Positions 1 to 33,113 of a stretch of DNA of 33,576 bases are shown piece after piece. Source of the DNA: Deltaproteobacteria bacterium (lineage in GTDB: Bacteria > SAR324 > NAC60-12); NCBI GenBank assembly GCA_038150265.1, contig JAYOTF010000009.1, positions 57,813-91,388 of the forward strand, written 5' to 3'. Both the position numbers and the translations under genes were made by a program. Each line of letters begins with the position of its first letter. Positions within the stretch are counted from its first letter, which is position 1. The notes beneath the pieces are model-generated. The model was not told the DNA's origin, ran no database searches, and was given only the letters and a program-made list of their open reading frames with translations.

Positions 1-646
1 TTGCGACCGTCTGCGGGAAGTGCTGGTCGGAGGCGGTGCCCTGCAGCATGAGGAAGTTGGCTCCGGCGGTGAGCAGTTCCGGAAGCCCTTTGGTGGACCA
101 GGCGGGGTCGGGAGACGGCACCCTCAGGCCGAGGACGATCTGCGTTTGGGAAACCCTCCGGACCACCCGCAGCGCCATCCGGGCATCGTCGAGGCGCTCA
201 AAGCCGCTCAGCCAGATCAGGTCGGCGTAGGTATCAGAGAGGTAAATGGCCTGGTTTCCGTAGGCGGCTTCCCGCAGCAGCGCCGGCACAGTCTCTGGAA
301 GCGCTTGCACGACTCCAGCCTGCACGCCGTGGTCCCCCAGTACTTCCTTGAGCAGCGCTCGTCCGGAGTTGTTGAGCGCCTCGCAGCGGTCGCTCAACTC
401 CAGCGGCTTCAGGGCCTCCAGCGAGGCGCCGGCGGTGTTGGTCCGGAAGATCTGAGCGCCGGCACGCTTGTGAATGCGGTGGGCCTGACGGACCGGCTCC
501 GGAGCCTCCTGGTTCGCCCAGCTGAGCGTGGGGAGGTCGGTGAGGCCCAGTTGCTGGAGCGTGGGCGCCAGGTCGGCGTCGCTGACGAGGGGGGCTTCTT
601 CTTCAAGAATGGGGAGCAGTTCAAAGGACGAACCTGAGCGCATCAT
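1..646 (-). CDS. Divergent homocysteine S-methyltransferase (Hcy-binding barrel) family protein, 3' end runs off the window
   Basis: Manual translation of the minus strand from ATG 646 (or 643) is open to the window edge: MMRSGSSFELLPILEEEAPLVSDADLAPTLQQLG...WANQEAPEPVRQAHRIHKRAGAQIFRTNTAGAS...EALNNSGRALLKE. This matches the family pattern DGxMGT...NxxxPExVxxxHxxYxxAGAxIIxTNTFGA...ExNxxAxxLA. It is absent from the ORF track because it has no stop in the window. Confidence 0.75.
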   Translation of the reverse strand, partial: MMRSGSSFELLPILEEEAPLVSDADLAPTLQQLGLTDLPTLSWANQEAPEPVRQAHRIHKRAGAQIFRTNTAGASLEALKPLELSDRCEALNNSGRALLKEVLGDHGVQAGVVQALPETVPALLREAAYGNQAIYLSDTYADLIWLSGFERLDDARMALRVVRRVSQTQIVLGLRVPSPDPAWSTKGLPELLTAGANFLMLQGTASDQHFPQTVA

Positions 647-706
647 GGTGGAAAAACGGGGAAGAGGGGAACAAAAACAGTGACGGGAAAACGGCGGGGT
701 GAGGGT

Positions 707-2158
707 TCAGTGAAGCTCCGGAAACTGACGACGCATGAGGTGCAGCGCCTTCTTGGAGGCTCCGAGGATGTCGGTAATGAGCTTTTGCTCCACCGGATTG
801 CACTCTCGGGGATCGAGGTGATTTTCCGGGGCCTTGCCTTCGCGGAGGCGAGACACCTGGTGGCGCAGGCGCAGGCGCATGAGGAATTCATAGCCTTCCT
901 GGAGCAGCTTGTGGTCGTCGGGACGCAGCGCCTGAAGCTCCCGGAGGCGGTCCAGGCGGTCGCTCGTGTTCGTCAGCTCCAGGTGCTGCTGCAGGGAAAA
1001 GAAGCGGGCGCCGTCCACAATGGGAGTCATCGCCTTTTTCAGGTCAAAGGTGTGGTCGTGCTCGCCACCTTTTTCCAGAGCCAGCCCGCCCCACCAGTTG
1101 AGGGGGGGCTGCATCTGCTGGGCGTTCCGGGCAAGGTGATAGAAGAACAGGCGGTTCTGATCGTTCAGGAGGCTCCAGAGGTGCTGGCGCAGCAAATCGG
1201 CCAACTCGCTGGAACCATGGGCCGCCCGGAAATCGAAGAAGATGGTGCTGCGCATGATGGCCACGGGCTCCGGAGTCTCCACCCACTTGCGGAAGTAGCC
1301 CTTCCAGACAGAAAGGGGCTGGCACCAGAGCGGGTTCTGGGCCATGACGTTTCCCTGGCAGAGCGAGTACCCAACGCGGTCGAGCCGAGAGCAAATGGCT
1401 TCACCAAAGCGGAGGAACCAGCCCTGGACCTCGCCCAACTGCGCATCCGGGACATCCTCAAAGACGATGGCGTTGTCCTGATCGGTTTTGAGGGTCTGCT
1501 CCTGCCGGCCTTCGCTGCCCATGGTGAGGAAGACGAAGGGCACCGGAGGAGGACCCAGTTCCTCAAGGGCCTGGCGCAGCAGGGCTTCAAGGACGGTGTC
1601 GGCAAAGAGGCTGATGAGGCGGGTGATGCTGAGAACCGGCATGCCGGTTTCAATGAGCGTGCTGACGACTTCCGGAATCTGTTGCTGGAGCGCCGCCATC
1701 TCTTCAACGCTCCGGGCGGCTTCCAGAGAGCGGAGCAGGTAGAACTGCGAGTACCCCTGCGCAATGAGGGCGTGGTGCCGGACCAGTCCACAGACTCGGC
1801 CGGTGGGGTCGCTGATGCCGAGGTGCATGACGTTGTGCAGGTTCATCACCAGCAAGGCGTCAAAGACGGTCTTGTTCTCTGGAATGGCAAACAACGGCGC
1901 CGACATGACATCGCCGACGGGAGTGTCCAGGGGCAATCCGGCGGCAACGATGCGGTTCCGGAGGTCCTTGTCGGTGAAGATGCCCTGAAAGCCAACCGCC
2001 CCGCCTTCCACCAGAATGGCGCTGCTCTGCTGCTGCTGCATCAGGCGGGCGGCTTCCGTGACCGGAGTGGTGACGGCGCAGGTGGGCACTTCGCCGCGGA
2101 GCATCTCGGAGAGGGGCTGCTGGTAGTAGTGAAGGTTGGGAGAGGCGTTGGTGTCCAT
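707..2158 (-). CDS. CBS-pair + DUF294 putative nucleotidyltransferase (with DUF294_C substrate-binding domain)
   Basis: N-terminal CBS pair (GIFTDKDLRNRIVA...VGDVMS), NTase motif GSEGRQEQTLKTDQDNAI, the CQGNVMAQNPLW and IFFDFR motifs, and C-terminal DLKK...TSDRL. Confidence 0.85.
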   Translation of the reverse strand: MDTNASPNLHYYQQPLSEMLRGEVPTCAVTTPVTEAARLMQQQQSSAILVEGGAVGFQGIFTDKDLRNRIVAAGLPLDTPVGDVMSAPLFAIPENKTVFDALLVMNLHNVMHLGISDPTGRVCGLVRHHALIAQGYSQFYLLRSLEAARSVEEMAALQQQIPEVVSTLIETGMPVLSITRLISLFADTVLEALLRQALEELGPPPVPFVFLTMGSEGRQEQTLKTDQDNAIVFEDVPDAQLGEVQGWFLRFGEAICSRLDRVGYSLCQGNVMAQNPLWCQPLSVWKGYFRKWVETPEPVAIMRSTIFFDFRAAHGSSELADLLRQHLWSLLNDQNRLFFYHLARNAQQMQPPLNWWGGLALEKGGEHDHTFDLKKAMTPIVDGARFFSLQQHLELTNTSDRLDRLRELQALRPDDHKLLQEGYEFLMRLRLRHQVSRLREGKAPENHLDPRECNPVEQKLITDILGASKKALHLMRRQFPELH

Positions 2159-2179
2159 GGAGCCCAGGCACGTCCAAAG

Positions 2180-2413
2180 TTAGTTGGAAGGAACGACGGT
2201 CTCCTTGAGGTCCTGCACCATCTTGCCTGCCTGATCCGGAAGCCCTTCCGCCTGCTGCTCGGTCCACTGCACAGAGTCACCGATCAGGCCCTGAGCCGAT
2301 TCAATGAGGCCCTGGTTTTCCATCCAGTCGAGCACATCGACGTAGGTGAGGCCTTGAGTGCCCGCCCAGTAGGCGGCGGCAAGCAGAATCAGGATGAGGA
2401 GCAGGCGAAACAT
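2180..2413 (-). CDS. Small hypothetical membrane-anchored/exported protein (77 aa)
   Basis: ATG at 2413 lies 1 nt after the purA stop. Hydrophobic N-terminus MFRLLLILILLAAAYWAG followed by an acidic amphipathic tail. Confidence 0.65.
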   Translation of the reverse strand: MFRLLLILILLAAAYWAGTQGLTYVDVLDWMENQGLIESAQGLIGDSVQWTEQQAEGLPDQAGKMVQDLKETVVPSN

Positions 2414-2414
2414 A

Positions 2415-4534
<2,120 letters not shown>

Positions 4535-4629
4535 GGCCTCTGTTAAAAAAATATGGTTTGTCTTTGCGGATGAGTCGAAGCAAACTTTGGAACCCTACAC
4601 GATTTGACCCCGAAGAACCAGAAAAAACC

Positions 4630-5436
4630 GTGAAACTCAGCACGCTTAGCCTCTCTATTCCGGAGCCCTCCGGAAGTTTATACATCGTCTCGGACTCGCA
4701 CCTTGATCGTCATCAAGCCCCTCCGGATGAGTTTGTCGCAATGCTGGATGCGCTTCCTGATGCCGAGGTGGTGATCTGCCTGGGGGACCTCTTCAAGGTG
4801 TGGCTGGCGTTGCCTCGGTTCTGGTCGAAGCTCAACCGCGAGGTGATGATTGGCTTCTGGCGCCTGAAGGAGTGCGGGGCCACGAACGTCTTTGTGGTGG
4901 GCAACCGTGAAGTGCTGGTGCCCCGAGACCACCGTCCGGAGCGTCAGGAACTGCCCTTTCACCACATTGCTCCAGATGAGCTGTCTCTGCAGTGGGGCAG
5001 CTGGAAGCTGGGTTTTCTGCACGGAGACACGGTCAATTCGCAGGACAAGCAGTACCTGCGCTGGCGTCGGTTGTGCCGCAGCTCGCTCTTCCGCTGGTTC
5101 TTCCGGAGCCTGCCGAAGGTGCTGGCGGTCAAGATTGCCGACCGGGTGGAGGAAGCCCTGAACCACAGCAACCAGGAGTTCAAAATTGCCTTTCCGGAGG
5201 CCGAGGTGAAGCACTTTGCCGCCAAGGCCCTGGCGCAGTATGACGCTTACTTCCTGGGGCACTTTCACCGAGACGACACCATTCGGGTGGAAGGCTACCC
5301 CGGCTTCCTGCGGGTGGTTCCCGACTGGTTGGGCACACGCTCCATCCTCCGGCTTTCCGCCAGTGGCCAGCTCGAAACCCTGGTTTTCCGAGAGGGGCAC
5401 CTGATCCCGGTGGCTTCCGAACGTCCCCAGATTTAA
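4630..5436 (+). CDS. lpxH: UDP-2,3-diacylglucosamine diphosphatase (LpxH-like calcineurin-type metallophosphoesterase)
   Basis: SDSHL, LGDLF, GNRE, HGD..N..DKQYLRWR and GHFH motifs. The start is uncertain; GTG 4630 was chosen, and the ORF is open from 4558. Confidence 0.75.
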   Translation: MKLSTLSLSIPEPSGSLYIVSDSHLDRHQAPPDEFVAMLDALPDAEVVICLGDLFKVWLALPRFWSKLNREVMIGFWRLKECGATNVFVVGNREVLVPRDHRPERQELPFHHIAPDELSLQWGSWKLGFLHGDTVNSQDKQYLRWRRLCRSSLFRWFFRSLPKVLAVKIADRVEEALNHSNQEFKIAFPEAEVKHFAAKALAQYDAYFLGHFHRDDTIRVEGYPGFLRVVPDWLGTRSILRLSASGQLETLVFREGHLIPVASERPQI

Positions 5437-5560
5437 CGCCTGCGCTGCGGGTCAGCTCCGCCGGGATCCGCTGGGAGTCTGACCGTTTCCCGCCTGCTTG
5501 CACGATGCCTGCATTGCCCCAGAGCAAAATGCAGTCTTGAACCTTTTTCTGGTTACGGTC

Positions 5561-6721: not shown

Positions 6722-6722
6722 C

Positions 6723-7625: not shown

Positions 7626-7632
7626 CCTCCGC

Positions 7633-7661
7633 TTGAACCTCTGCCACGCTTTTGGCATACT
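7633..7661 (+). promoter_or_regulatory. Putative sigma70 promoter of the mutase-meaB-pyrD unit
   Basis: TTGAAC (7633-7638), 17-nt spacer, TGg-CATACT (7656-7661) with an extended -10 TG. Confidence 0.45.
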
Positions 7662-7717
7662 CCCCCGCAACCTGCCGTATCTTGCCTTGATGCAAGGCCA
7701 CCCTTTCGGAGAGTTGC

Positions 7718-12005: not shown

Positions 12006-14248
12006 GAGATCAGGCGGAATCCGGAGCGCTTGATGTCCGGACGGTCGAGGATTTCGAGGTAGTGCTGGGCCAGCTGGTGGAGGTTTTCTTCTTCAAGGTG
12101 AAAGTCTTCCTCAGACGTGGTTTCCACCAGCTGCGAAAAGTGCAGGCGGGCCTCATAGAGGTTCTTCTGCTGAAACGCGATGGCGCCGAGGTGAAAGAGG
12201 GTGGCCGGTGGGTGCCCCGGAAACTGGAGTGACTGTCGGAAGAAGTCCTGAGCCGTGTCCCACTGGCGGAGTTCAAGATACAGGCGTCCGAGCTCATAGA
12301 GCAGCAGAGCCCGCTCTTCATAGGAGCCGAAGTGGTGTTCCAGCACCCGACGGGCATGAGCCAGGAAGGCTTCCGGATTGTGCCGCCGCCGCTCCCACAT
12401 CGGAAAGCGCAGGGGGCGGATGTTGGCCAGGCGTTGCGCTTCCTGGTCGGAGAGCTTGAGCAAGCGGGCCGTGAGCAGCTGGGTGTAGAGCTGGGCCCGG
12501 AAGCCGGAGTCGGTTCGCAGGACCATGGTGGCGCCGCAGTTCTTGCAGTGGAGCGGTTCCGGAGTCCAGAGGTCGTCCTGCTGAAAGGGCCGCCGCTGCT
12601 CCAGAGCCTCCGGATCGTAGTAGAGGATCTTCAGGTGGTAGTGGTAGGAGGCCCGGCAGGCGAGGCATGAGATGCGAACCGACAGGGGCTGCTGCTCCGA
12701 ATACACCAGGCAGGAAGCGTCAATGGTGTCGGGACACGGCTGCTCGTGAGCGGTGCAGAGCAGGAAGATCAGCTGCGCCAGCCCCTGCTCGCCTTCGCGG
12801 TAGTGCTCCAGCAGCTTGGGGATGAAGCGCACATCGGGCATGCGCTCAATGAGGTCGAAAAACAGCGTGTAGTGCTGGTTCAGCAGAGGCGTGAAGTGCT
12901 CCAGCAGCGTGGCCAGCACCGGCTCAGAGGGCGCCTGCTGAAACAGCTGCAGCGCATAATCGACTTCCTCATGCCGCTCGGCTTCCAGCAGGTCTCCCAG
13001 TGCATCCCCAAATACGGCCGCCAGTTGCTCGTTGAGCAGTGGCAGCTCCAGCTCCCACGGGTGCGGAAGGAGCAAGGGGTAGTTGCACACCTGAGGCTGA
13101 GGCAGCTCCCAGGCCCACAGCAGCAGCAGCTCCTTGGCCGAAAACCGAGGTGCCGCTGGACGCGGCAGGGTGCGGGGCGGGGGCCCTCCGGACTGGATGG
13201 CATGGTGAATGAGCGCGGCGTATTGACTGACCGAGATCAGGGACGAGGCGCTCAGGGCCTGCAGCTCCTCCCAGTGCGCTTCCGGAGGCACCACGGCTTC
13301 CAGCAAGCGGTCGCGCAGTGCTTCCAGCGGAAGGGCGGTCAGCAGCAGCAGCTCGGCCTCCTGAATGCGGATGATCGTCTGGTCCCACTCCGGCTCAATG
13401 AAATCCAGAAATCCTTGCAGCGTTTCAAGCACCAGTTCTCCAGAGGCGGCGCCCCAGTGCTGGGCGGCTTCCTGAAGGAGGCCCAGGAGCGGACGCGGTT
13501 CCGGCTGCTCGCCGAGGGCATCCAGGTGGCGAACGAGCTGCGGAGGCAGGCGGGGAGCCAGGTGCTCAATGGAGCCCATGACGACCTCGTAGAGGGTGCC
13601 AATGCCAGCGCCAGCGTCAAACTGCATCTTGATGAACTCCAGCAGCCCCCGGAAGTCGAACAGGCTGAGGAGGTACTGGGAAAACTGCGGGTCCGTGAAT
13701 TCCTTCCGGAAGTACTGGTAGCGCTCCAGCAGGCACCGGAGGCGCTGGGGGCTGTTGGCCTCCTGGCAGAGCACCTCAAACAGCGTGAGGGCCTTCAGGT
13801 GATTGGTCTGGTGAGCCTGGAGGAACTCCTCCAGGTCGTCCCATGCCTCTGGAAGCCCGGTGTGGAGCCAGGTCCGGGCGGCACACTGCAGCTCGGGGAG
13901 GTTGAGCTCATCGGCATGAAGCAGGCGCTGGAGCCACTGAAACAGAGGCGGGTGGGCGGCTTCGTAGTTGAGCTGCACCAGCGCTTCGGCACACGCGCAC
14001 CGCATGCCTCCGGAGCTTCGCTGAAACAGGCCCAGCAGCTTGAAGGCGTAGCGGTCGTTTCCGCTCCGGTTGATGAGGTGGATGGCCACCTCCCGAATTT
14101 CCGGAAGCGGCGAGTCCAGCATCGACTCAATGAACGGGTCCGGCTCATCGCGCCATTCGTTCAGCAGCTGATACGTCGCCCAGAGCCGGACTCGCTCATG
14201 CTCTGAGGTCAGAAGGTGCTGTAGGGTTTCCAGAGAAAGAATGCGCAT
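12002..14248 (-). CDS. Large helical-repeat protein: N-terminal HEAT-like repeats, CxxC...CxxC Zn ribbon, C-terminal TPRs
   Basis: HEAT-like segments LLTSEHERVRLWA and PEIREVAIHL; CLAC...CKNC; TPR segments LLYELGRLYLELRQWDTAQDFFRQSL and LFHLGAIAFQQKNLYEARLHFSQL. Confidence 0.75.
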   Translation of the reverse strand: MRILSLETLQHLLTSEHERVRLWATYQLLNEWRDEPDPFIESMLDSPLPEIREVAIHLINRSGNDRYAFKLLGLFQRSSGGMRCACAEALVQLNYEAAHPPLFQWLQRLLHADELNLPELQCAARTWLHTGLPEAWDDLEEFLQAHQTNHLKALTLFEVLCQEANSPQRLRCLLERYQYFRKEFTDPQFSQYLLSLFDFRGLLEFIKMQFDAGAGIGTLYEVVMGSIEHLAPRLPPQLVRHLDALGEQPEPRPLLGLLQEAAQHWGAASGELVLETLQGFLDFIEPEWDQTIIRIQEAELLLLTALPLEALRDRLLEAVVPPEAHWEELQALSASSLISVSQYAALIHHAIQSGGPPPRTLPRPAAPRFSAKELLLLWAWELPQPQVCNYPLLLPHPWELELPLLNEQLAAVFGDALGDLLEAERHEEVDYALQLFQQAPSEPVLATLLEHFTPLLNQHYTLFFDLIERMPDVRFIPKLLEHYREGEQGLAQLIFLLCTAHEQPCPDTIDASCLVYSEQQPLSVRISCLACRASYHYHLKILYYDPEALEQRRPFQQDDLWTPEPLHCKNCGATMVLRTDSGFRAQLYTQLLTARLLKLSDQEAQRLANIRPLRFPMWERRRHNPEAFLAHARRVLEHHFGSYEERALLLYELGRLYLELRQWDTAQDFFRQSLQFPGHPPATLFHLGAIAFQQKNLYEARLHFSQLVETTSEEDFHLEEENLHQLAQHYLEILDRPDIKRSGFRLIS

Positions 14249-14332
14249 GAGTCGCTGCAACTCGAGAGTGATCAACCGCTTGGAGGACAAAAAGCCCAAG
14301 ACGGTGCAAGGAGTGATCCCCGCAGGAACGGA

Positions 14333-14827
14333 TTACGTCATCAGGTTTGCCGAATCAATGATCTGCTGACGTTCCAGGTTGAGGCGGTTTTGTTCTTCCG
14401 ACCAGTTCCGGTTTTGTTCCATCTGCCGGTGGGCCCAGCGCATCACCGTCTTGCCAAATTCCTTGGGCAGGCCCAACTGCTTGGCCACCTGAATCAGGAC
14501 GTCCGCCTCCACCTTCTTGAGGTTCCCATCGACGACCGCAATGGACGCAATGTAGAAGAAGAGGCTGGCTCCTGTTTCCAACGGAACCTTGAGGGGTTCA
14601 ATGTCATAAAGCTTCTTCTGCTTGACCAGGGTCATCAGGTTCTGAGCTTCTTCTTTGGAATCAAGGAGGTGGATGGCCTCTTGGAGGGCAATCAGCTCAT
14701 TGGGTTCCACAATGCCATCTGCGACCACAACGCTCCCAATTGCGTTGACGACCCAGTCCCGAATTTCTTTGGAAAGTCCAGTGACAACCTGGTTCGTTAA
14801 CTTGGGGTCCAACCGAAGTACATACAT
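14333..14827 (-). CDS. TerB-family (tellurite resistance-like) protein
   Basis: Two TerB-type motifs, VVADGIVEPNELIAL and AVVDGNLKKVEADVLIQVAKQLGL. GC content is lower than in the neighbours. Confidence 0.75.
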   Translation of the reverse strand: MYVLRLDPKLTNQVVTGLSKEIRDWVVNAIGSVVVADGIVEPNELIALQEAIHLLDSKEEAQNLMTLVKQKKLYDIEPLKVPLETGASLFFYIASIAVVDGNLKKVEADVLIQVAKQLGLPKEFGKTVMRWAHRQMEQNRNWSEEQNRLNLERQQIIDSANLMT

Positions 14828-14976
14828 AAGTTTGAGATTTTTCCAAGGGGAAAAGAAAAAGAAATCAGGAAATCCCCCGAATGTCCACCTGGGGGCTCAA
14901 TTGACTTGCTCCCCACTAGAATAAGGCGTTATATGAGGGTTTTTCAACATCTCACGTACGTCCCAAACGGAGAAAC

Positions 14977-16455
14977 ATGGCAAACACCTGGCAGACCATC
15001 GGAATGAAAGATTCCGGACTTTTTCGAAATCAAGCTTACGTTGACGGTCAATGGGTCAATGCAGACAGCGGAGAGACCGACCCCGTGACCAACCCCGCCA
15101 CCGGAGAGGTCCTGACGACGGTCCCACGCTGTGGAGCTGATGAAACGCGCCGAGCGATTGAAGCCGCCAATGCCGCCTGGCCCGCCTGGCGCAAGAAAAC
15201 CGCCAAGGAGCGGGGCAAGATCATCCGCCGCTGGTACGACCTCATGATGGAAAATCAAGAGGACCTGGCTCGGCTGATGACCGCGGAGCAGGGCAAGCCG
15301 CTGGCCGAGTCGATGGGCGAAATCGTGTATGCGGCGTCCTTCCTCGAGTGGTTTTCGGAAGAGGCCAAGCGGACCTACGGAGAGACGATTCCGACCTACA
15401 ACCAGGACCGCCGCGTCATGGTCGTCAAGGAGCCGGTTGGGGTTTCGGCCTGCATCACCCCCTGGAACTTCCCGGCTGCCATGATCACGCGAAAGGCTGG
15501 ACCTGCCCTGGCGGCCGGCTGCCCCATGATCATCAAGCCGGCTCCGGACACCCCGCTTTCTGCCCTGGCGCTGTGTGAGCTGGCCGAGCGTGCAGGAGTG
15601 CCGAAGGGCATCCTCAGCGCCGTGACCGGAGACGCCATTGCCATCGGTGGAGAGCTGACCTCCAATGCCATTGTCCGCAAGCTCAGCTTCACCGGCTCCA
15701 CCGGCGTGGGGAAGATCCTCATGAAGCAGTGTGCAGACACCATGAAGAAGCTCTCCCTCGAGCTCGGAGGCAACGCGCCGCTGATCGTGTTTGATGATGC
15801 CGACCTTGACGCCGCCGTTCAAGGGGCGATTCAGTGCAAGTTCCGCAACGCGGGACAGACCTGCGTCTGTGCCAACCGCCTGCTGGTGCAAGATGGCATC
15901 TACGACCGCTTCATGGAAGCCTTTGCCGAAGCCGCCAAGCACCTGCGTGTGGGAGACGGCCTGAAGGGGGAAACCGACCAGGGACCGCTCATCAATGCGG
16001 CGGCTGTTGAAAAGGTGGAGAGTCACATTCAGGATGCCGTCAGCAAGGGCGCCCGTGTGCTGGCTGGAGGTCACCGTCACGAAAAAGGAGGCTGCTTCTT
16101 TGAACCCACTGTCCTGGCCGATGTCACCCCGGACATGAAAGTGGCCAAGGAAGAGACCTTCGGACCGCTGGCGCCGGCCTTCCGCTTCAAGACGGAAGAA
16201 GAGGCTTTGCAGATGGCAAATGACACCGAGTTTGGACTCGCTTCCTACTTCTTTACCCGCGACATCGGCCGCGTCTGGCGGGTGGCTGAGGGCCTGGAGT
16301 ATGGCATGGTCGGCATCAACACCGGTGTGATTTCCACCGAAGTCTCGCCGTTTGGCGGAATCAAGGAGTCCGGCATTGGACGAGAAGGTTCCCTCTACGG
16401 CATTGAAGAGTACATGGAAGTCAAGGCCATCCACATGGCTGGAGTCGATCGATAA
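14977..16455 (+). CDS. gabD: NAD(P)-dependent succinate-semialdehyde dehydrogenase
   Basis: ITPWNFP, FTGSTGVGK, LELGGNAP, FRNAGQTCVCANR, EETFGP and PFGGIKESGIGREGS motifs; GGAG RBS. Confidence 0.93.
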   Translation: MANTWQTIGMKDSGLFRNQAYVDGQWVNADSGETDPVTNPATGEVLTTVPRCGADETRRAIEAANAAWPAWRKKTAKERGKIIRRWYDLMMENQEDLARLMTAEQGKPLAESMGEIVYAASFLEWFSEEAKRTYGETIPTYNQDRRVMVVKEPVGVSACITPWNFPAAMITRKAGPALAAGCPMIIKPAPDTPLSALALCELAERAGVPKGILSAVTGDAIAIGGELTSNAIVRKLSFTGSTGVGKILMKQCADTMKKLSLELGGNAPLIVFDDADLDAAVQGAIQCKFRNAGQTCVCANRLLVQDGIYDRFMEAFAEAAKHLRVGDGLKGETDQGPLINAAAVEKVESHIQDAVSKGARVLAGGHRHEKGGCFFEPTVLADVTPDMKVAKEETFGPLAPAFRFKTEEEALQMANDTEFGLASYFFTRDIGRVWRVAEGLEYGMVGINTGVISTEVSPFGGIKESGIGREGSLYGIEEYMEVKAIHMAGVDR

Positions 16456-16556: not shown

Positions 16557-18551
16557 ATGATTGCCAAGCTGCTGATTGCGAATCGGGGCGAAATTGCCTG
16601 TCGGATCATCCGGACCTGTCGTCGATTGGGCATCCGGACCGTTGCCGTCTATTCAGAGGCTGATCGAGACGCCCAACACGTCCGGCAGGCCGATGAAGCC
16701 TGCTGGATCGGCGAGGCTCCGCCGGCGCAGTCGTATTTGCGTGCCGAGCGGATTCTGGATGCTGCGCAGAAGCACCAGGCCGAGGCCGTGCACCCCGGCT
16801 ATGGCTTTTTATCGGAACAGGCGGCCTTTGCTCGTGCGTGTGAAGCGGCGGGCGTGGTCTTTGTTGGCCCTCCGCCAGAGGCCATGGAACGCATGGGCAC
16901 CAAAGATGAGGCCAAGCGCCTGATGGAGGCCGCCGGGGTGCCGGTGGTCCCGGGCTACCATGGCGCCGAGCAGGACCCGGCCTTCCTGCAGCAAGAGGCC
17001 GACCGCATCGGCTACCCTGTGCTCATCAAGGCCGTTTCCGGTGGCGGGGGCAAGGGGATGCGTGTGGTGCCGGAGCCGCTCATGTTTCTCGAAGCGCTGC
17101 GGTCGGCACGTCAGGAGGCCCGGAATGCGTTTGGTGACGACCGCGTGCTGCTGGAACGCTTTGTCTCCGGACCTCGGCACCTGGAGGTTCAGGTTTTTGG
17201 TGACACGCAGGGCCAGGTGGTGCACTGCTTTGAGCGCGAATGCTCCCTGCAGCGGCGCCATCAAAAGGTCGTGGAAGAGGCCCCTTCTGCGTCCATTGAC
17301 GACGCAACCCGGGCCGCCTTGACGGCAGCAGCGGTGCAGGCGGCGCGGGCCGTGGGGTACGTCAATGCCGGAACCGTTGAGTTCATCATGAATGACGACC
17401 GCGAGTTCTTCTTCATGGAAATGAACACGCGCCTGCAGGTGGAGCACCCCGTTACGGAAGCCATCACCGGACACGACCTGGTGGAGTGGCAGCTGCGGGT
17501 GGCCTCCGGAGAGCCTCTTCCGGTGACGCAAGCGCAGCTTCAGCGCTGTGGGCATGCCGTGGAGGTCCGGATTTATGCGGAGCATCCGGAGTCGGGCTTT
17601 CTGCCCAGCACCGGAACCCTGACGCGCCTGCAGCTTCCGGAGTCGGCGCCGGGTGTCCGTGTTGATTCCGGAGTGGTGGCCGGCGATGTCATCTCGCCAT
17701 ACTATGACCCGATGGTGGCCAAGCTCATTGCGTCCGGAAGCACCCGAGCCGAGGCGCTGGAACGGCTTCAGGGGGCTCTGGCTCAGACGCACGCTTCCGG
17801 ACTCCACACCAACCTCGGGTTCCTGCAGACGCTGCTGCGTCAGGAGCCGGTGCAGCAGGCGGAAGCCGATACCCTGTACATTGACCAGCACCTTGACGAC
17901 CTGTTGGCGCCTCCGGAGATCCCGGAGCCCGTTTGCTGGAGCGCTGCGCTGGCGGTCTTGCAGGCCCGCCGTCCTCAGGAGGTGCGTTCGCCGTGGGATC
18001 GCTTCGACAACTGGCGCATCGGTGGGGCCCTGCCGCATCATCTGCGCTTTCATGCTTACGGTGATGAAGCCTCGGTGCAGGTCCACTGGTCGGAGCAAAC
18101 TGCTGAATTTCTAACTGATTCCGGCGCAGTGGACGTGCAGGTGCTGGGTTCCGAGCCCTGGGAACTGCGTTGGGCGGAGGGGGCCTGGAAGGGGCAGGTT
18201 TTCCAGGAAGGCGAAACGCTTTGGGTCCTTCCACAGCAGGGCGCTGGGCAGGGAAGTCGCTTTGCCCTGAAGGTGCTTCCGGATCTTGAAGGCGCGCCTG
18301 CGGGAGAAGAGGAAGGCCTGCGCCTGACCGCTCCCATGCCTGGCAGCGTGACACAGGTGTGGGTGCAGGCGGGAGACGCCGTGAAGCGCGGGCAGCCGCT
18401 GGTGACCATGGAAGCGATGAAGATGGAACACACCCTGACGGCTCCGGAAGACTGCTGGGTGGCCGCCCTGCACTTCCCGGTGGGGGCGCTGGTGCCAGCA
18501 GATGCCCAGTTGGTCACGCTTTCCGAAACCGAACCTCAAGCCGAACCTTAA
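16557..18551 (+). CDS. Biotin-dependent acyl-CoA carboxylase alpha subunit (biotin carboxylase + BCCP; 3-methylcrotonyl-/propionyl-CoA carboxylase type)
   Basis: IANRGEIA, HPGYGFLSE, GGGGKGMR, ERECSLQRRHQKVVEEAP, EMNTRLQVEHPVTE and the biotinylation motif EAMKM. Confidence 0.93.
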   Translation: MIAKLLIANRGEIACRIIRTCRRLGIRTVAVYSEADRDAQHVRQADEACWIGEAPPAQSYLRAERILDAAQKHQAEAVHPGYGFLSEQAAFARACEAAGVVFVGPPPEAMERMGTKDEAKRLMEAAGVPVVPGYHGAEQDPAFLQQEADRIGYPVLIKAVSGGGGKGMRVVPEPLMFLEALRSARQEARNAFGDDRVLLERFVSGPRHLEVQVFGDTQGQVVHCFERECSLQRRHQKVVEEAPSASIDDATRAALTAAAVQAARAVGYVNAGTVEFIMNDDREFFFMEMNTRLQVEHPVTEAITGHDLVEWQLRVASGEPLPVTQAQLQRCGHAVEVRIYAEHPESGFLPSTGTLTRLQLPESAPGVRVDSGVVAGDVISPYYDPMVAKLIASGSTRAEALERLQGALAQTHASGLHTNLGFLQTLLRQEPVQQAEADTLYIDQHLDDLLAPPEIPEPVCWSAALAVLQARRPQEVRSPWDRFDNWRIGGALPHHLRFHAYGDEASVQVHWSEQTAEFLTDSGAVDVQVLGSEPWELRWAEGAWKGQVFQEGETLWVLPQQGAGQGSRFALKVLPDLEGAPAGEEEGLRLTAPMPGSVTQVWVQAGDAVKRGQPLVTMEAMKMEHTLTAPEDCWVAALHFPVGALVPADAQLVTLSETEPQAEP

Positions 18552-22506: not shown

Positions 22507-22549
22507 ATGCAAGGCAAAACCTTGTTTCGTGGGAAAGACGGTGTGTGGT

Positions 22550-23886: not shown

Positions 23887-23922
23887 CCTCTCCATCGAAG
23901 GGGGCTCGGCTCGGCTGGGCCC

Positions 23923-23943
23923 TCCTCCGGAGCTTCCGGAGGA
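23923..23943 (+). other. Intercistronic hairpin after the SBP gene
   Basis: TCCTCCGGA-GCT-TCCGGAGGA, a 9-bp stem. Such hairpins are common after SBP genes for differential mRNA stability. Confidence 0.45.
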
Positions 23944-23959
23944 CCTTCCGGGTTGCCTC

Positions 23960-24982
23960 ATGCCGCACAAGACGTTCTTCTGGTTCATCCTCCCTTCTGC
24001 CTTGGCGATGACGCTGTTCATCGCGCTCCCCATTGTTTCGGTGCTGGTGCAGTCGTTCTATGTGGAGCACGAACGGGTCTTCAAGGAAGTGGAAAACTGC
24101 ACCCCGTTCAGCTGCAAAACGGAGCTTCAGGTGGACGCCGAGGCCACGGCTGCCCTGGAAGCTGCCGAGCCGCTGGGCCGCTTCAACGGCTGGGGCACCT
24201 ACCTCAACCGCCGGCACCTTGCTGTGGAAGAGGTGGGGCAGGCCTGGGCGGAGCGGGCATCCCTCCCGGACTTTCTGGCAGCGCTTTACAACCTCCCGTT
24301 TTACAAAGCCCTCGCCTTCACCCTCACGTACCTGCTTGCCGTCACCCCGCTGGTGATCCTGCTGGGCTTTGCCATTGCCCTGGGCGTCAATGCGCTCCCG
24401 GGGCTGTTCAAGGGACCCGTGATCTTCTTTTCCCTGCTCCCGATGGTCATCACGCCCCTGATTGGCTCCCTGATTCTCTTCTGGATGATTGATGCCCGGG
24501 GCATCCTGGGTTCCCTGATCCAGACCCTGTGGGAAGATCCGGACCTTTCGCTGAAGGCCTCTCCGGTGCTGACGTGGGTCATGCTCATGGTTTACGGAGT
24601 CTGGCATTCGGCGCCATTTGCCTTTGTCGTGTTCTACGCTGGGCTGCAGACGGTGCCGCAGGACACGCTGGAGTCTGCAATGATCGACGGCGCCACCCGC
24701 TGGGAGCGCACCCGGTACGTGGTGCTGCCCTACCTGATGCCGTTGGTGATCTTTGTGACGCTGATGCAGCTGATGGACAACTTCCGGGTCTTTGAGCCGG
24801 TGGTGGGCTTCTCGGCACAGGCGAGCGCCACGTCGCTGAGCTGGATGATCTTCAATGACCTGCGTCAGGAGGTGCAGCTCTTTGGCTCGGCAGCCGCGAC
24901 TTCGGTCCTGACGATTGTGGGGGTCATCATCTTGCTGATGCCGGTCCTGATCCGGACCTGGAAGCAGTTCCACCAGAAGTAA
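23960..24982 (+). CDS. Carbohydrate ABC transporter permease (MalF/UgpA-like)
   Basis: Multiple TM helices and the EAA loop GLQTVPQDTLESAMIDGATRWER. Confidence 0.93.
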   Translation: MPHKTFFWFILPSALAMTLFIALPIVSVLVQSFYVEHERVFKEVENCTPFSCKTELQVDAEATAALEAAEPLGRFNGWGTYLNRRHLAVEEVGQAWAERASLPDFLAALYNLPFYKALAFTLTYLLAVTPLVILLGFAIALGVNALPGLFKGPVIFFSLLPMVITPLIGSLILFWMIDARGILGSLIQTLWEDPDLSLKASPVLTWVMLMVYGVWHSAPFAFVVFYAGLQTVPQDTLESAMIDGATRWERTRYVVLPYLMPLVIFVTLMQLMDNFRVFEPVVGFSAQASATSLSWMIFNDLRQEVQLFGSAAATSVLTIVGVIILLMPVLIRTWKQFHQK

Positions 24983-24989
24983 GGAGCCC

Positions 24990-25871: not shown

Positions 25872-25895
25872 CCCATTTGATTCAAGGGAACAGCC

Positions 25896-26597
25896 ATGAG
25901 TGAGCCCCTTCATTCTGAAGAATTGCTGGCGCACCTGCGTCAGTTTGACACGCCGACCATCTGCAATGCTCTGGAGCTGGTGAGTCCGAATTACCGGACC
26001 ACGGGCTTCACGACCCGGCAGCTGGTCTGCGCTCGTCCGGAACTGCCTCCGATGGTGGGGTATGCCCGTACCGCGACCATCCGGGCCACGCATCCGGTGG
26101 ACCCGCAACGCAAGCGCGAGAACGCGCTGCGCTATTACGAATACTGCGCTCAGCCGCCGCTTCCAACCATCATTGTGGTGCAGGACCTGGACGCGACCCC
26201 AGGCTTTGGAGCACACTGGGGCGAGGTTCACTCCAACGTCCACCAGGCACTGGGGGCGCTGGGCGCGGTCACGAACGGCAGCATCCGGGACCTCGATGTG
26301 CTGGCAGATGGCTTTCAGCTGCTTGGGGGACAGGTGGGCCCGAGCCACGGGTGGGTGCATGTGGAAGACTCCGGAGTGGAGGTGAACATCTTCGGCATGC
26401 AGGTTCGCCACAACGACCTGCTTCACGCCGACCGACACGGCGCCGTGGTGATTCCTCATGAGGCCGCTGAGCAACTTCCGGCGTGCATTGACCTGCTGAC
26501 CCGCCGCGAACAGGTCATTCTGGAAGCCTGCCAGCGTGCTGATTTTTCCGTGGAGGTGCTGCGGGAGGCCATGAGCCAGTCCGCCGACCTTCACTAA
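25896..26597 (+). CDS. RraA/HMG-CHA aldolase family protein
   Basis: FDTPTICNAL, MVGYART, WGEVH, GAVTNGSIRDL and DLLHADRHGAVVIP motifs. Confidence 0.88.
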   Translation: MSEPLHSEELLAHLRQFDTPTICNALELVSPNYRTTGFTTRQLVCARPELPPMVGYARTATIRATHPVDPQRKRENALRYYEYCAQPPLPTIIVVQDLDATPGFGAHWGEVHSNVHQALGALGAVTNGSIRDLDVLADGFQLLGGQVGPSHGWVHVEDSGVEVNIFGMQVRHNDLLHADRHGAVVIPHEAAEQLPACIDLLTRREQVILEACQRADFSVEVLREAMSQSADLH

Positions 26598-26666
26598 CGC
26601 CTCCGGAGCGAGGTGGCTCCGGACCCGACCCTCATTTTTGACCTGCTTCAATCAGGAGTCTGTTTC

Positions 26667-28744: not shown

Positions 28745-28752
28745 GCGCACGC

Positions 28753-30742: not shown

Positions 30743-30776
30743 CGTCCTTCGCCTCCAACCTGAATTCGGATTTGGT

Positions 30777-31751: not shown

Positions 31752-32869
31752 TGCCTGTTGCCACCACCCATGTGGGGAGCTTGCCCCGCAGCCAGAAAGT
31801 GGTTGATTTCCTCTTCCTTCGCGAGCGCGGAGAGGCGTATGACCCGGACGCGTTTGATGCCTGCATGACCGAGGCGGTCTCGGAAGTGGTGCGGCGTCAG
31901 GTAGAAGCCGGGGTGCAGATCGTCTCAGACGGCGAGACCTCGAAGATCAGCTACGCCACCTACGTCAAGGACCGCTACACCGGATTTGCCGGAGACAGTC
32001 CCCGGAATGCTCCAGCGGACCTGAAGCAGTTTCCGACCTTCCTGGAACGCATTGCTCAGTCAGGGGGGACCCCAACGTATGCCCGCCCGATGTGTGTGGG
32101 GGAGGTGCGGCCTCGGGGGCAGGGTGAGCTGCAGAAGGACATTGCGAACCTGAAAGCGGCCATGGCGGCACACGGGGCGCAGGAAGGCTTCATGAATGCC
32201 GCATCTCCAGGCGTGATTTCGCTGTTTCTGCCCAACGACTTTTACCCGAGCCGTGAGGCGTACCTGCAGGCGTTGGCCACTGCCATGGCCGACGAGTACC
32301 GCACGATTCTGGATTCCGGACTGTACCTGCAGCTGGACTGTCCGGATCTGGCGCTCTCGCGGCACATGCTCTTTGCCGACCTGTCCGACGAGGCATTTCT
32401 GCAGGTGGCGGCGCTGCACGTGGAGGCCCTGCATCAGGCTCTTGAGGGCCTGCCCCAGGACCGCATTCGGCTCCACATCTGCTGGGGCAACTACGAAGGC
32501 CCGCACGTGTGTGACATTGACATGGCCAAGGTCTTTGACACGCTCATGACGGTACCGGCGCAGTACCTGCTCTTTGAAACGGCGAACCCCCGGCACGGAC
32601 ACGAGTGGACCGTGTTTCGAGACCGCGCCGCAGACATCCCTGACACCAAGGTGCTGGTGCCCGGAGTGGTGGACACGACCACCAACTTTGTGGAGCATCC
32701 GGAGCTGGTGCGGCAGCGCCTGGAACGGTTTGTCGACATCGTGGGCGCTGAGCGGGTGCTGGCCGGTTCCGACTGTGGCTTCGGCACCTTTGCCGGCTTT
32801 GGGGCCGTTGATCCCGAGATCGCCTGGGCCAAGCTGGCCACCCTTGCTGCCGGCGCCCAGCGCGTCTGA
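31751..32869 (+). CDS. Cobalamin-independent methionine synthase II-like / epoxyalkane:CoM transferase family Zn enzyme (C-terminal MetE domain only)
   Basis: TTHVGSLPR, VSDGE, LQLDCP, Zn ligands HICWGN...E...DCGF, and VEHPELV; 372 aa. Confidence 0.9.
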   Translation: MPVATTHVGSLPRSQKVVDFLFLRERGEAYDPDAFDACMTEAVSEVVRRQVEAGVQIVSDGETSKISYATYVKDRYTGFAGDSPRNAPADLKQFPTFLERIAQSGGTPTYARPMCVGEVRPRGQGELQKDIANLKAAMAAHGAQEGFMNAASPGVISLFLPNDFYPSREAYLQALATAMADEYRTILDSGLYLQLDCPDLALSRHMLFADLSDEAFLQVAALHVEALHQALEGLPQDRIRLHICWGNYEGPHVCDIDMAKVFDTLMTVPAQYLLFETANPRHGHEWTVFRDRAADIPDTKVLVPGVVDTTTNFVEHPELVRQRLERFVDIVGAERVLAGSDCGFGTFAGFGAVDPEIAWAKLATLAAGAQRV

Positions 32870-32891
32870 TCCTCCCGGACCCGGCGTCCGG

Positions 32892-33113
32892 TCAGTGGAT
32901 CCGGGTTTCGTCGTACTCTCCAATGATGCTGTTGCGCAGGTAGGAACCGACGGAAGACGCCTTCATCAGCGCTCGGTACACGCGTTCCGGAACCTCGGTG
33001 TAGGCCCAGATCTGGCCCCGTCGAAAGACCACCTCGAGCGTCCGGGTTTCGCGGTCGTATCCCACGGCATAGACCATGGACGAGTTTTGAACCTTGGTCA
33101 GGGTCTTGATCAT
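32892..33113 (-). CDS. KTSC domain protein
   Basis: SSMVYAVGYDRETRTLEVVFRRGQIWAYTEVPERVYRALMKASSVGSYLRNSI is a close match to the KTSC pattern. Confidence 0.9.
   Translation of the reverse strand: MIKTLTKVQNSSMVYAVGYDRETRTLEVVFRRGQIWAYTEVPERVYRALMKASSVGSYLRNSIIGEYDETRIH

Follow-up and report, generated by a model that had tools for sequence, protein, structure and literature searches.

TCCGGA, a highly iterated and helically phased palindrome in the genome of a SAR324 bacterium

The palindrome TCCGGA was found 9,711 times in the SAR324 genome analyzed here (G000; 3.39 Mb in 87 contigs, 97.8% complete), which corresponds to 2.9 copies per kb and makes it the commonest of the 4,096 hexamers. 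The word arises at the level of the DNA itself wherever protein coding leaves room for it and is spread nearly evenly over the genome, and the distances between its copies follow the helical repeat of DNA. The bacterium is marine and uncultured, and SAR324 ranks among the most abundant groups in the dark ocean. To our knowledge, highly iterated palindromes (HIPs) still lack an agreed function some three decades after they came to notice in cyanobacteria. A first-pass annotation had proposed a genome-wide HIP-like palindrome in this non-cyanobacterial lineage, and the analysis bears this out. In our best reading, the word is HIP-like, and the 10.5-bp phasing is its new feature.

Distribution of TCCGGA in the window

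The whole stretch of DNA (the window; 33,576 bases) contains exactly 108 copies of TCCGGA (3.2 per kb), the first at position 78 and the last at 32986-32991. In 100 dinucleotide-preserving shuffles the mean was 12.1 (sd 3.5, max 22) and none of the 100 reached 108, in agreement with an earlier manual estimate of 105-110 copies against about 11 expected. Comparison words are less frequent in the window (ACCGGT 8, GCCGGC 33, CCCGGG 16, AGGCCT 12). Pfam searches identified genes for PurA, ProC, methylmalonyl-CoA mutase with MeaB, PyrD, aldehyde dehydrogenase, biotin carboxylase, an ABC transporter, HisD and a LacI-type regulator, among others. The features are as follows.

78..32991, no strand: field of 108 dispersed TCCGGA, in housekeeping genes on both strands and in spacers
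4659..4674, no strand: TCCGGA pair 10 bp apart (4659, 4669), about one helical turn
14100..15013, no strand: 913-bp gap without TCCGGA, holding an AT-richer TerB-domain ORF (14333-14827); gap GC 52.3%
17505..17917, no strand: cluster of 8 TCCGGA in 413 bp, in the biotin-carboxylase (acyl-CoA carboxylase alpha) gene
23923..23943, no strand: hairpin of two TCCGGA 9 bp apart, with a 9-bp stem and a 3-nt loop
26602..26623, no strand: hairpin of two TCCGGA 16 bp apart, with an 8-bp stem and a 6-nt loop

The example positions named in the first-pass annotation (78, 362, 4659/4669 and eight in 17505-17917) are correct apart from one, given as 422, which should read 442. Successive spacings in the cluster are 61, 19, 51, 31, 66, 63 and 116 bp. 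Its 8 sites compare with 1.35 expected, and the cluster is only mildly unusual because the Poisson tail of 8.5e-5 per counting interval is spread over about 79 such intervals. Both hairpins, recognized earlier as built from TCCGGA pairs, are real and were confirmed by folding. The first is intergenic, 3' of a solute-binding-protein gene (-35.9 kcal/mol for the fold of the whole 23900-23965 segment), and the second bridges the short spacer from an RraA-like gene to the start of hisD (-18.1 kcal/mol for 26585-26640). Genome-wide, 40 of the 45 TCCGGA pairs at d=9 lie inside genes, showing that the 9-bp spacing is not terminator-specific. The word is indeed absent from the TerB-like ORF and from the 33.0-33.6 kb segment, which are AT-richer as had been pointed out (GC 52.5% and 54.6%), but this absence carries no meaning, with only 1.6 and 1.9 sites expected. 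The site-free stretch at 14100..15013 is not statistically unusual either, since gaps of at least 900 bp occur 7 times against 6.0 under a Poisson process.

Genome-wide excess at the DNA level

Observed-to-expected ratios (O/E) of TCCGGA in G000 were 8.7, 7.6, 4.0 (3.95) and 2.4 under Markov models of orders 0 to 3, and 1.22 at order 4. A compositional artefact, arising from codon usage, from dipeptide content or from how often CCGG occurs, would draw on the fact that TCC, GGA and CCGG are common here, and on the halving of the ratio at order 2 and its fall at order 4. The order-4 model, however, conditions on pentamers that are mostly the motif itself. The half-words TCCGG and CCGGA are 2.5- and 1.8-fold over the codon shuffle, which together with the order-4 ratio places part of the signal at the pentamer level. 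The codon shuffle permutes synonymous codons within each gene, so that neither the encoded proteins nor the codon usage of any gene changes. Genes contain 8,489 TCCGGA against 2,019 +/- 34 after this shuffle (4.2-fold, z=188), and the excess is present in all three reading frames (1,993, 2,313 and 4,183 observed against 508, 699 and 811 expected; 3.3- to 5.2-fold). The artefact was thus tested and rejected, retaining practically no probability, and the enrichment outlives the very control on which the first-pass annotation had staked it.

Other observations also stand against composition. The density in non-coding DNA (2.37 per kb) is similar to that in coding DNA (2.95 per kb), and 8,487 of the 20,464 places that the proteins permit (41.5%) are filled with the word. 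Codon choice depends on context. The T-ending preference before CCGGA noticed earlier is confirmed and strong: T is the last base of 10.1% of four-fold codons overall (n=379,103) and of 71.8% of those directly before CCGGA (n=2,503). Likewise, TCC makes up 49% of serine codons before glycine and 29% elsewhere. The enrichment is limited to the full word; a proposed comparison with ACCGGT, GCCGGC and CCCGGG found none of them enriched genome-wide (O/E 0.66-0.68). Flanking bases show weak preferences only. The metagene profile is flat: sites do not accumulate at gene ends, nor are they enriched in terminator-like pairs. Restriction-site avoidance is marked by an under-represented palindrome, and in G000 the deviation has the opposite sign; such avoidance does occur in other SAR324 genomes, G084 (below) among them.

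Helical phasing and its two registers

Distances between TCCGGA pairs in G000 show a sharp 10.5-bp period with a power of 1,260, compared with a mean of 135 (sd 51, max 387) in 200 trials of a jitter null. Among the 40 commonest hexamer classes this period occurs in TCCGGA alone (normalised power 44.6); the next-best values, 7.8 and 5.7, belong to words overlapping TCCGGA. Phasing is present in both genome halves (power 34.0 and 15.7) and is equal in same-frame and different-frame pairs (19.0 vs 19.5). In-phase distances are 1.31 times uniform and anti-phase distances 0.81 times (z=9.8). Non-coding sites alone gave a power of 3.7, being too few to show phasing. As an internal control, the in-phase to anti-phase ratio is 1.86 for pairs of shared sites and 1.92 for pairs of G000-only sites, whereas G000-only sites paired with G002-only sites, which are never in one genome, are unphased (0.89).

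Within SAR324, only part of a single family has the trait, over a GC range of 42-61%. TCCGGA is the top palindrome at 42% GC (G012, O/E 7.3), 53% (G005, 4.1) and 60-61% (genus g1, 7.1-9.0), and is thus independent of base composition. Other SAR324 lineages are almost without it; for example, G084 has 15 sites against 1,435 of the control word. Within the phylum the word is either multiplied or nearly purged. Other genera share the helical period, in one of two opposite registers, as seen in the pair counts at d=29-33, 34-38, 40-44, 45-49, 50-54 and 55-59.

G032: 190, 24, 101, 31, 76, 31
G039: 170, 45, 88, 50, 81, 45
G061: 14, 71, 18, 71, 39, 69
G062: 17, 93, 23, 110, 59, 107
G001: 50, 97, 55, 94, 84, 84

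The register is reversed in G001, which belongs to the same genus as G000, and in genus g19. The G001 spectrum, from 1.55 of 3.6 Mb, is marginal: its power of 11.0 at 10.85-10.9 bp lies below the highest value (11.6) of 200 null trials. Opposite registers within one genus, and the register of g19, are hard to square with a single conserved reader and call for an extra assumption.

A 10.5-bp period is a hallmark of face-of-helix effects, and intrinsic DNA mechanics could produce it if phased TCCGGA steps gave curvature or supercoil geometry with no specific reader; opposite registers could then correspond to adding or cancelling bends. Against this, no phased A/T or WW signal was found around TCCGGA. 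Near-cognate words are not phased with it (power 0.5-2.3, or 5.6 for words keeping one half-site, with controls up to 2.0), and the chemically similar palindromes ACCGGT, GCCGGC and CCCGGG lack the enrichment. Specificity for one exact word is what protein recognition typically gives, and a purely mechanical origin appears very improbable.

Retention and turnover of sites

TCCGGA is kept at synonymous positions beyond expectation. Where amino acids are conserved, retention between G000 and G002 is 1.82, 1.76 and 2.27 times that of the same codons elsewhere (z 7.0, 8.8 and 12.2; n=184, 215 and 307), and the corresponding values against G001 are 2.14, 1.73 and 2.88. Twelve control words mostly gave 0.3-1.6, with a maximum z of 5.7. 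Retention between G000 and G002 is independent of an in-phase neighbour (0.435 with one, n=223; 0.468 with anti-phase neighbours only, n=109) and so gives no showing of selection on pairs as such.

This retention excess does not tell selection from a conversion-type drive, under which it is equally expected. In such a drive, nicking or very-short-patch-type repair, or biased gene conversion, would turn near-cognates into TCCGGA, leaving the excess as a by-product without function. Turnover is indeed fast, with 525 aligned sites common to G000 and G002, 608 G000-only and 366 G002-only. The density also varies greatly inside one genus (g11, from 0.12 to 2.1 per kb), and a retron island on contig C45 carries the word at full density (3.0 per kb). 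However, single-site action predicts neither 10.5-bp phasing nor two opposite registers. One-step variants include CCCGGA (80), TCTGGA (55), TGCGGA (54), GCCGGA (42) and others. Every substitution class both creates and destroys the word, so that no single mutational path or mismatch type feeds it.

Dcm/Vsr very-short-patch repair in E. coli raises its target word and lowers the deamination products. The parallel with the present case is that a target word can become more frequent through repair. In G000, by contrast, Vsr (PF03852) was not found, the deamination neighbours are not depleted (TCTGGA/TCCAGA O/E 2.57, TTCGGA/TCCGAA O/E 1.34), nor are the one-step neighbours in general (O/E 0.5-3.0), and the effect is far larger and phased. 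A functionless drive is judged improbable.

DNA methyltransferases and repair enzymes

In a methylation-linked HIP, an orphan DNA methyltransferase would modify TCCGGA at N4-cytosine or N6-adenine, and the word would build up through a methyl-directed repair ratchet (Elhai's model) or through a hemimethylation reader that needs dense sites (Dam/SeqA/MutH-like). The density of 2.9 per kb is near that of GATC in E. coli. The multiplied-or-purged pattern also fits, suggesting that TCCGGA-specific enzymes circulate in the phylum. In addition, two G000 genes encode T-S-P-P-Y, which we take to be an N4-cytosine methyltransferase signature: M1 on contig C45 (PF01555, 81 bits) and MT2 on contig C51.

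Neither gene fits the role well. M1 lies in a retron-type trio (PADLOC RT_XIII, 6e-70) and occurs only in G000 and G001, while G002 has 7,726 TCCGGA with a mere fragment of it. MT2 is the sole, weak match to the Dam-type PF02086 in G000 (27 bits) and is present in 17 of 20 relatives, motif-free ones included. Its predicted structure (pLDDT 88.5) is nearest to tRNA m2G methyltransferases (Trm11, Z 18.8 and 18.5; TrmN, 17.1), with no DNA methyltransferase among the best 50 structure matches. The first-pass annotation suggested a search for an orphan TCCGGA/CCGG methyltransferase and a Vsr-type endonuclease; neither a C5 cytosine methyltransferase (PF00145) nor Vsr was found in the 97.8%-complete genome, and PF02384, PF07669, SeqA (PF03925) and MutH (PF02976) were not found in G000 either. 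Across 45 genomes of the family, the presence of PF01555, PF00145, PF02384 or PF02086 does not follow that of the motif, and no DNA methyltransferase family is common to the motif-rich genomes while being absent from the motif-poor ones. The undepleted deamination neighbours are a further point against methylation. Overall, methylation is an unlikely explanation, somewhat less so than drive.

A putative chromosome-wide reader

The reading we favour, at a confidence a little short of even, is that selection maintains TCCGGA throughout the chromosome as the recognition word of a putative sequence-specific DNA-binding factor. This factor would most likely act as a symmetric dimer, recognizing the whole palindrome and interacting with copies of itself bound at neighbouring sites of the duplex. 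We infer that binding is cooperative or bridging and that oligomer geometry sets the register, which would explain the opposite register in sister lineages. The Dam-GATC/SeqA system suggests, by analogy, chromosome compaction, post-replicative tracking or self-marking as possible functions. Between the two origins offered in the first-pass annotation, "methylation/repair-driven or protein-bound", the second gains indirect support from the motif-specific 10.5-bp phasing; the first finds none.

A broader version is put forward more tentatively: SAR324 may possess a reading system keyed to TCCGGA, in which an oligomerising protein drives the word near saturation, its geometry flipped between sister species and the word purged elsewhere. 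The protein could be a nucleoid-organising, replication-tracking or self-marking factor, and its assembly geometry would put neighbouring sites on the same or opposite helix faces. In other SAR324 lineages a TCCGGA-specific activity might be harmful, leaving the word nearly purged.

Comparison with known systems

Cyanobacterial HIPs include HIP1 (GCGATCGC) and the alternatives GGCGCC, GCsGC and rCCGGy (Elhai, 2015, PMC4390886; Xu, Lawrence and Durand, 2018, PMC5861425). Like TCCGGA, these are short palindromes that far exceed expectation in non-coding DNA and in all reading frames. They are restricted to certain lineages, have been gained and lost among relatives, and are conserved among related genomes beyond codon or amino-acid expectation, one-mismatch words partly so (Xu et al., 2018, PMC5861425). 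The word TCCGGA, a hexamer, and its SAR324 lineage make it HIP-like rather than HIP1, at a higher density (2.9 per kb). The main argument of Elhai (PMC4390886) is that HIPs co-occur with cognate orphan DNA methyltransferases, whereas no DNA methyltransferase family was seen to track TCCGGA over the 45 family genomes. HIP1 is described as periodic over tens of kilobases (Xu et al., 2018, PMC5861425), whereas TCCGGA follows the 10.5-bp helical repeat in either of two opposite registers.

The Dam-GATC/SeqA/MutH system of E. coli is likewise based on a dense palindromic word read genome-wide (Chung et al., 2009, PMC2691817), such reading being a proposal for TCCGGA. GATC differs as a 4-mer that is dense without enrichment. 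G000 also has no SeqA, MutH or Dam-type enzyme beyond the weak MT2 match, and G001 and genus g19 favour the opposite helix face.

Compared with TCCGGA, the uptake and Chi sequences known so far are longer, or else asymmetric and dependent on orientation; USS (Haemophilus) and DUS (Neisseria) have 9-12 bases, are asymmetric, and often form inverted pairs in terminators. TCCGGA could be a DNA uptake or recombination signal of this DUS/USS- or Chi-like kind, marking "self" DNA for transformation or recombination. It shares with USS and DUS the character of a lineage-specific short word, evenly spread over the whole genome at about one (here 1-3) per kb. HIP1 has recently been linked to transformation efficiency and gene transfer (bioRxiv 10.1101/2024.09.10.611283; PMC13756078). 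TCCGGA, however, is a 6-base palindrome unlike those words, has no terminator association, as seen in the flat metagene profile at gene ends and in the d=9 pairs, and is helically phased with no obvious role for phasing in uptake. We consider an uptake signal as improbable as a mechanical origin.

Implications

The SAR324 case moves the HIP question to another phylum, with no matching methyltransferase found and with helical-turn spacing in two registers as a structural clue. Close relatives provide natural contrasts: one genus includes both motif-rich and motif-free species, and in another both registers occur. These contrasts offer a route to the responsible gene through comparative genomics and DNA-affinity tests. 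Because TCCGGA saturates these SAR324 genomes and bends codon choice, it matters for analyses of codon usage, binning and horizontal transfer. If the reading system keyed to TCCGGA is real, iterated palindromes in general would be traces left by cooperative readers of the genome rather than by methylation or repair.

TCCGGA enrichment is a DNA-level feature

The window contains exactly 108 copies of TCCGGA, in agreement with the roughly 105–110 reported in the first-pass annotation against about 11 predicted; dinucleotide-preserving shuffles (n = 100) gave a mean of 12.1 and a maximum of 22. The individual site positions listed there are correct, except that the site placed at 422 lies at 442. 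The source genome G000 (3.39 Mb, 87 contigs, 97.8% complete; window at G000:C9:57813-91388) contains 9,711 sites at a density of 2.86 per kb, and TCCGGA ranks first among all 4,096 hexamers (19,422 on both strands), and the runner-up, with 10,913, is an overlapping word. The genomic observed/expected (O/E) ratios under Markov models of orders 0 to 4 are 8.67, 7.57, 3.95, 2.39, and 1.22, the order-4 value being low because the pentamers on which this model is conditioned, TCCGG and CCGGA, are themselves part of TCCGGA in about half of all cases. The sister palindromes ACCGGT, GCCGGC, and CCCGGG have genomic O/E ratios of 0.66–0.68.

In a crude gene model, 2,524 ORFs account for 85% of the genome, with densities of 2.95 sites per kb in coding and 2.37 per kb in non-coding DNA. 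Synonymous codons were then permuted inside each gene, preserving all proteins and per-gene codon usage. The genes contain 8,489 sites, compared with 2,019 ± 34 after shuffling (4.2-fold, z = 188), and the excess is present in the frames TCC-GGA (1,993 observed, 508 expected), xTC-CGG-Axx (2,313 and 699), and xxT-CCG-GAx (4,183 and 811). ACCGGT, GCCGGC, and CCCGGG reach 0.87, 0.64, and 0.92 of their own codon shuffles, so none of the three is enriched. TCCGGA occupies 8,487 of the 20,464 places that the proteins permit (41.5%). The preference for T-ending codons noticed in the first-pass annotation is confirmed, with four-fold codons ending in T at 71.8% before CCGGA vs. 10.1% in general, and the serine codon TCC has a share of 49% before glycine vs. 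29% elsewhere. The excess over the shuffle and the context-dependent codon choice show that the enrichment does not disappear after control for codon usage and dipeptides, and TCCGGA enrichment is therefore a DNA-level feature.

Sites are independent and evenly distributed

Symmetric preferences in the flanks of TCCGGA are weak (T 32% at −1, C 40% at −2, G 41% at −3), and the most frequent 10-mer containing it, CTTCCGGAAG, occurs only 275 times, indicating that the sites are independent and not copies of a mobile repeat. Windows of 5 kb contain 14.5 ± 4.1 sites with a minimum of 3, a near-Poisson distribution, and no motif-free islands were found in G000 at this scale. Contig C45, which bears a retron, carries the word at full density (3.0 per kb). 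The metagene profile is flat save for a dip at start codons (1.2–1.5 per kb), and spacings below 50 bp are depleted (900 vs. 1,308 expected).

The window encodes ordinary housekeeping genes, and an Rfam search of it returned no match. Both intergenic hairpins described in the first-pass annotation as built from TCCGGA pairs are real. Of these, as of close pairs in general, the spacing is not special: 40 of the 45 pairs at a distance of 9 bp lie inside genes, and the hairpins are therefore by-products of close palindromes rather than a class of terminators. TCCGGA is indeed absent from the terB-like ORF and the last 0.6 kb, as had been observed, but these gaps are within Poisson expectation.

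TCCGGA sites are phased on the DNA helix

The histogram of site-to-site distances in G000 peaks at about 9, 19, 31, 42, 52, 62, 73, 84, and 94 bp. At 10.5 bp the spectral power reaches 1,260, compared with a null mean of 135 (sd 51, maximum 387 in 200 trials) when every site was jittered by multiples of 3. Between 18 and 109 bp, distances no more than 1.5 bp from a whole number of turns occur at 1.31 times and those near half turns at 0.81 times the uniform expectation (z = 9.8). Of the 40 most frequent hexamer classes, TCCGGA alone is phased, with a normalised power of 44.6; the next values, 7.8 and 5.7, belong to words overlapping it, and the remainder do not exceed 5.2. The signal is present in each half of the genome (34.0 and 15.7) and has faded at about 300 bp. 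Power is equal for pair distances that are multiples of 3 and those that are not (19.0 vs. 19.5), which rules out an origin in protein periodicity. Non-coding sites alone, too few for this analysis, gave a power of 3.7. No phased A/T or WW signal was found around the sites, and near-cognate words showed no phasing relative to TCCGGA, except for a weak hint where one half-site is retained. The periodicity of cyanobacterial HIP1, the classic highly iterated palindrome (HIP), is counted in tens of kilobases according to Xu et al. (PMC5861425), and in that account differs from the 10.5-bp period of TCCGGA in not being helical.

Phasing was also assessed in relatives, using whole-genome pair counts in six 5-bp windows.

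TCCGGA pair counts by distance window in SAR324 genomes (genus in brackets)
Genome: 29–33, 34–38, 40–44, 45–49, 50–54, 55–59 bp; whole-turn vs. half-turn sum
G000 (g1): 152, 97, 165, 112, 187, 125; 504 vs. 334 (raw counts)
G001 (g1): 50, 97, 55, 94, 84, 84; 189 vs. 275
G032 (g11): 190, 24, 101, 31, 76, 31; 367 vs. 86 (z about 13)
G039 (g11): 170, 45, 88, 50, 81, 45; 339 vs. 140
G061 (g19): 14, 71, 18, 71, 39, 69; 71 vs. 211
G062 (g19): 17, 93, 23, 110, 59, 107; 99 vs. 310 (z about 10)

In g11, 13 genomes reach 25 or more pairs at 40–44 bp, and all of them favour these distances over 45–49 bp (sum 678 vs. 326). The corresponding counts are 83 vs. 44 in genus g4, 95 vs. 72 in the congener G002, and 43 vs. 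221 in g19. The matched stretches of G032 are unlike in sequence and scattered over 29–33 bp, and are therefore not repeats. In a 1.55-Mb sample of G001, whole-turn distances occur at 0.70 times and half turns at 0.97 times expectation (z = −3.3); the top period in the 5–30 bp range is 10.85–10.9 bp, with a power of 11.0 that lies below the null maximum of 11.6 among 200 (mean 4.9). Spacing spectra were underpowered for 400-kb samples from G001 and from G002, as for 100 kb from G062. Based on the pair counts, a helical-turn rule holds in every motif-rich lineage tested, in two opposite registers that occur even inside one genus.

Distribution of TCCGGA across SAR324

G000 belongs to the SAR324 lineage. 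The best matches of PurA are SAR324-cluster MAGs and single-cell genomes (57–70% identity), and relatives of MT2, a methyltransferase-like gene of G000, are labelled as 'Deltaproteobacteria' MAGs. Among 64 genomes of the order, enrichment is restricted to part of family f1. All three g1 genomes are rich (2.2–2.9 per kb), as are all three of g19 (1.4–2.3 per kb, 14–30 times the control word AGGCCT) and most of the 18 of g11 (up to 2.1 per kb), in which G036, G044, and G045 have just 0.12–0.16 per kb. Levels are intermediate in g4, g6, and g3, and enrichment was found in none of the nine g2 genomes and none of the 19 of family f2. TCCGGA is the top palindrome in G012 at 42% GC (O/E 7.3), and both top palindrome and commonest hexamer in G005 at 53% GC (O/E 4.1). 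No substitute hyper-abundant palindrome was found in 51–100 kb samples of motif-poor relatives.

A phylum survey of 72 genomes identified enrichment in other SAR324 families, with 357 copies of TCCGGA vs. 10 of the control word in G066 and 2.5–8 times the control word in genera g33–g35 of family f7. In G080, G081, G083, and G084, TCCGGA is nearly purged, with 15–76 sites in 3.1–3.4 Mb vs. 1,435–1,728 AGGCCT. The same word is thus multiplied or purged within one phylum. Near-elimination was likewise observed in G015, G017, G020, G067, and G068.

TCCGGA sites are retained yet turn over

Alignments to G000 covered 400 kb each of G002 and G001, at 82% and 74% identity, respectively. Retention was compared with that of the same codons elsewhere, using only sites at which all overlapped amino acids are conserved. 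Against G002, the retention ratios of TCCGGA are 1.82, 1.76, and 2.27 (z = 7.0, 8.8, and 12.2), and against G001 they are 2.14, 1.73, and 2.88. Ratios for 12 control words are mostly 0.3–1.6, the largest z (5.7) belonging to the one-off word TCCGGG. Retention shows no dependence on the phase of the neighbour, and an in-phase neighbour gives no higher retention.

Turnover is high, with 525 of the aligned sites shared, 608 only in G000, and 366 only in G002; the 135 triple-aligned sites with G001 as outgroup are too few to polarise gains and losses. These classes of site served as an internal control. Sites residing together in one genome are phased (in/anti ratio 1.86 for shared-shared and 1.92 for G000-only pairs), and sites of G000 only are unphased relative to those of G002 only (0.89). 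One-step variants at turned-over sites include CCCGGA (80), TCTGGA (55), TGCGGA (54), GCCGGA (42), TCAGGA (34), TCGGGA (29), ACCGGA (23), TTCGGA (20), and TACGGA (8). Variants of every kind thus occur, and no genome-wide depletion of the deamination neighbours of TCCGGA was seen, so that a single-mismatch repair path does not fit.

Search for a protein that writes or reads TCCGGA

The first-pass annotation had proposed a motif that is either methylation/repair-driven or protein-bound, and had suggested looking for an orphan methyltransferase and a Vsr-type endonuclease. PF00145, Vsr (PF03852), PF02384, PF07669, SeqA, and MutH were not found in G000 (97.8% complete). With PF00145 and PF03852 missing and neighbour words undepleted, the m5C/Vsr model was rejected. 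Two methyltransferase-like genes, M1 and MT2, were identified in G000.

C45:1404-5096 (L001), outside the window: retron-type trio of a reverse transcriptase (PADLOC RT_XIII, 6e-70), M1 (MTase_II), and a 311-aa ORF
C45:2844-3617: M1, 258 aa, beta-class N4/N6 DNA methyltransferase (PF01555, 81 bits)
C51:1-1387 (L095): MT2; full length in G002 at L097:451-2643

M1 carries the motifs FTSPPY and FAGGGT, and its nearest solved relatives are a putative methylase of Thermus and N4-cytosine enzymes. It is located between the reverse transcriptase and the 311-aa ORF, for which sequence comparison with Pfam, PADLOC, and PDB gave no match. The trio is kept in G001 (L084). M1 was rejected as the TCCGGA writer because it is part of this trio, only a fragment is present in G002, and no close relatives were found in other motif-rich genera.

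MT2 carries the motifs DPFMGGGT and ITSPPY after a long, charged, low-complexity N-terminus (Arg/Asp/Glu-repeat, 730 aa in G002; Lys/Glu-rich, 497 aa in G012). Its predicted model (pLDDT 88.5, pTM 0.89) has only generic methyltransferases as Foldseek matches (TM 0.3–0.5) and appears closest to tRNA m2G enzymes by VIA-align (Trm11 Z 18.8/18.5, TrmN 17.1, Trm14 16.4), with no DNA methyltransferase among its 50 best matches. Of 20 relatives, 17 have a conserved MT2 (41–93% identity). It was set aside as a putative writer, given its order-wide presence, motif-free genomes included, and its predicted tRNA m2G-like fold.

In a survey of 45 genomes of the family, the motif-rich ones did not consistently contain any of PF01555, PF00145, PF02384, and PF02086; the genomes are MAGs of 51–100% completeness, and absences therefore mean 'not found'. 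Several motif-rich genomes (e.g., G037, G043, and G047) have just a weak MT2-type match, and PF01555 matches are numerous in the motif-poor G006 (26), G049 (18), and G007 (12). Recognisable DNA methyltransferases are few in the small motif-rich genomes of g1, g11, and g19; in the large, less enriched G006, G007, G009, and G049, PF01555 and PF02384 each have between 8 and more than 20 matches.

TCCGGA in phage-like contigs and unrelated phyla

TCCGGA is dispersed and strongly over-represented in three phage-like IMG/VR contigs (L365, L376, and L418). L365 (46% GC) has 30 sites in 10 kb (O/E about 15), encodes a portal-like protein as well as a major head protein, and has no DNA match in the 45 SAR324 family genomes. 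Its methyltransferase (Methyltransf_24, adjoining a glycosyltransferase) was rejected as a relative of M1 or MT2, being unrelated to both.

In a scan of a species-wide contig collection for in-phase triplets, chance matches and tandem repeats predominate among those listed. Dispersed TCCGGA at 6–18 times expectation was observed in 6-kb stretches of a Lentisphaeria MAG (L519), Leptospira sarikeiensis (L487), a Desulfobacterales MAG (L504), and a Lachnospiraceae MAG (L533). As these stretches were chosen for containing a triplet, they give only a hint that TCCGGA may be iterated in unrelated phyla. Four further IMG/VR loci (L356, L369, L360, and L382) are tandem arrays of strict 15-bp period with TCCGGA in each unit, and probably encode protein repeats of five residues. 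Such arrays have no relation to dispersed TCCGGA and confound gapped-pattern scans.

A possible sequence-specific reader of TCCGGA

Cyanobacterial HIPs (PMC4390886) are the nearest descriptive class for TCCGGA, which may or may not belong with the methyltransferase-linked HIP model. No relevant publication on TCCGGA as a palindrome, on its over-representation or m4C, or on SAR324 palindromes or methylome motifs was found in the literature open to non-subscribers, and the literature matches listed for helical periodicity of genome-wide palindromes with a methyltransferase included nothing relevant.

A sequence-specific protein is suggested by exact-word specificity, saturation, retention, the variety of mutational routes, and most of all by motif-specific phasing. 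The TCCGGA pattern is best explained by such a protein reading the palindrome and linking neighbouring sites. Such a protein would recognise TCCGGA, and copies bound at neighbouring sites would interact with each other. We tentatively suggest that TCCGGA may be a selected recognition word for a sequence-specific DNA-binding factor.
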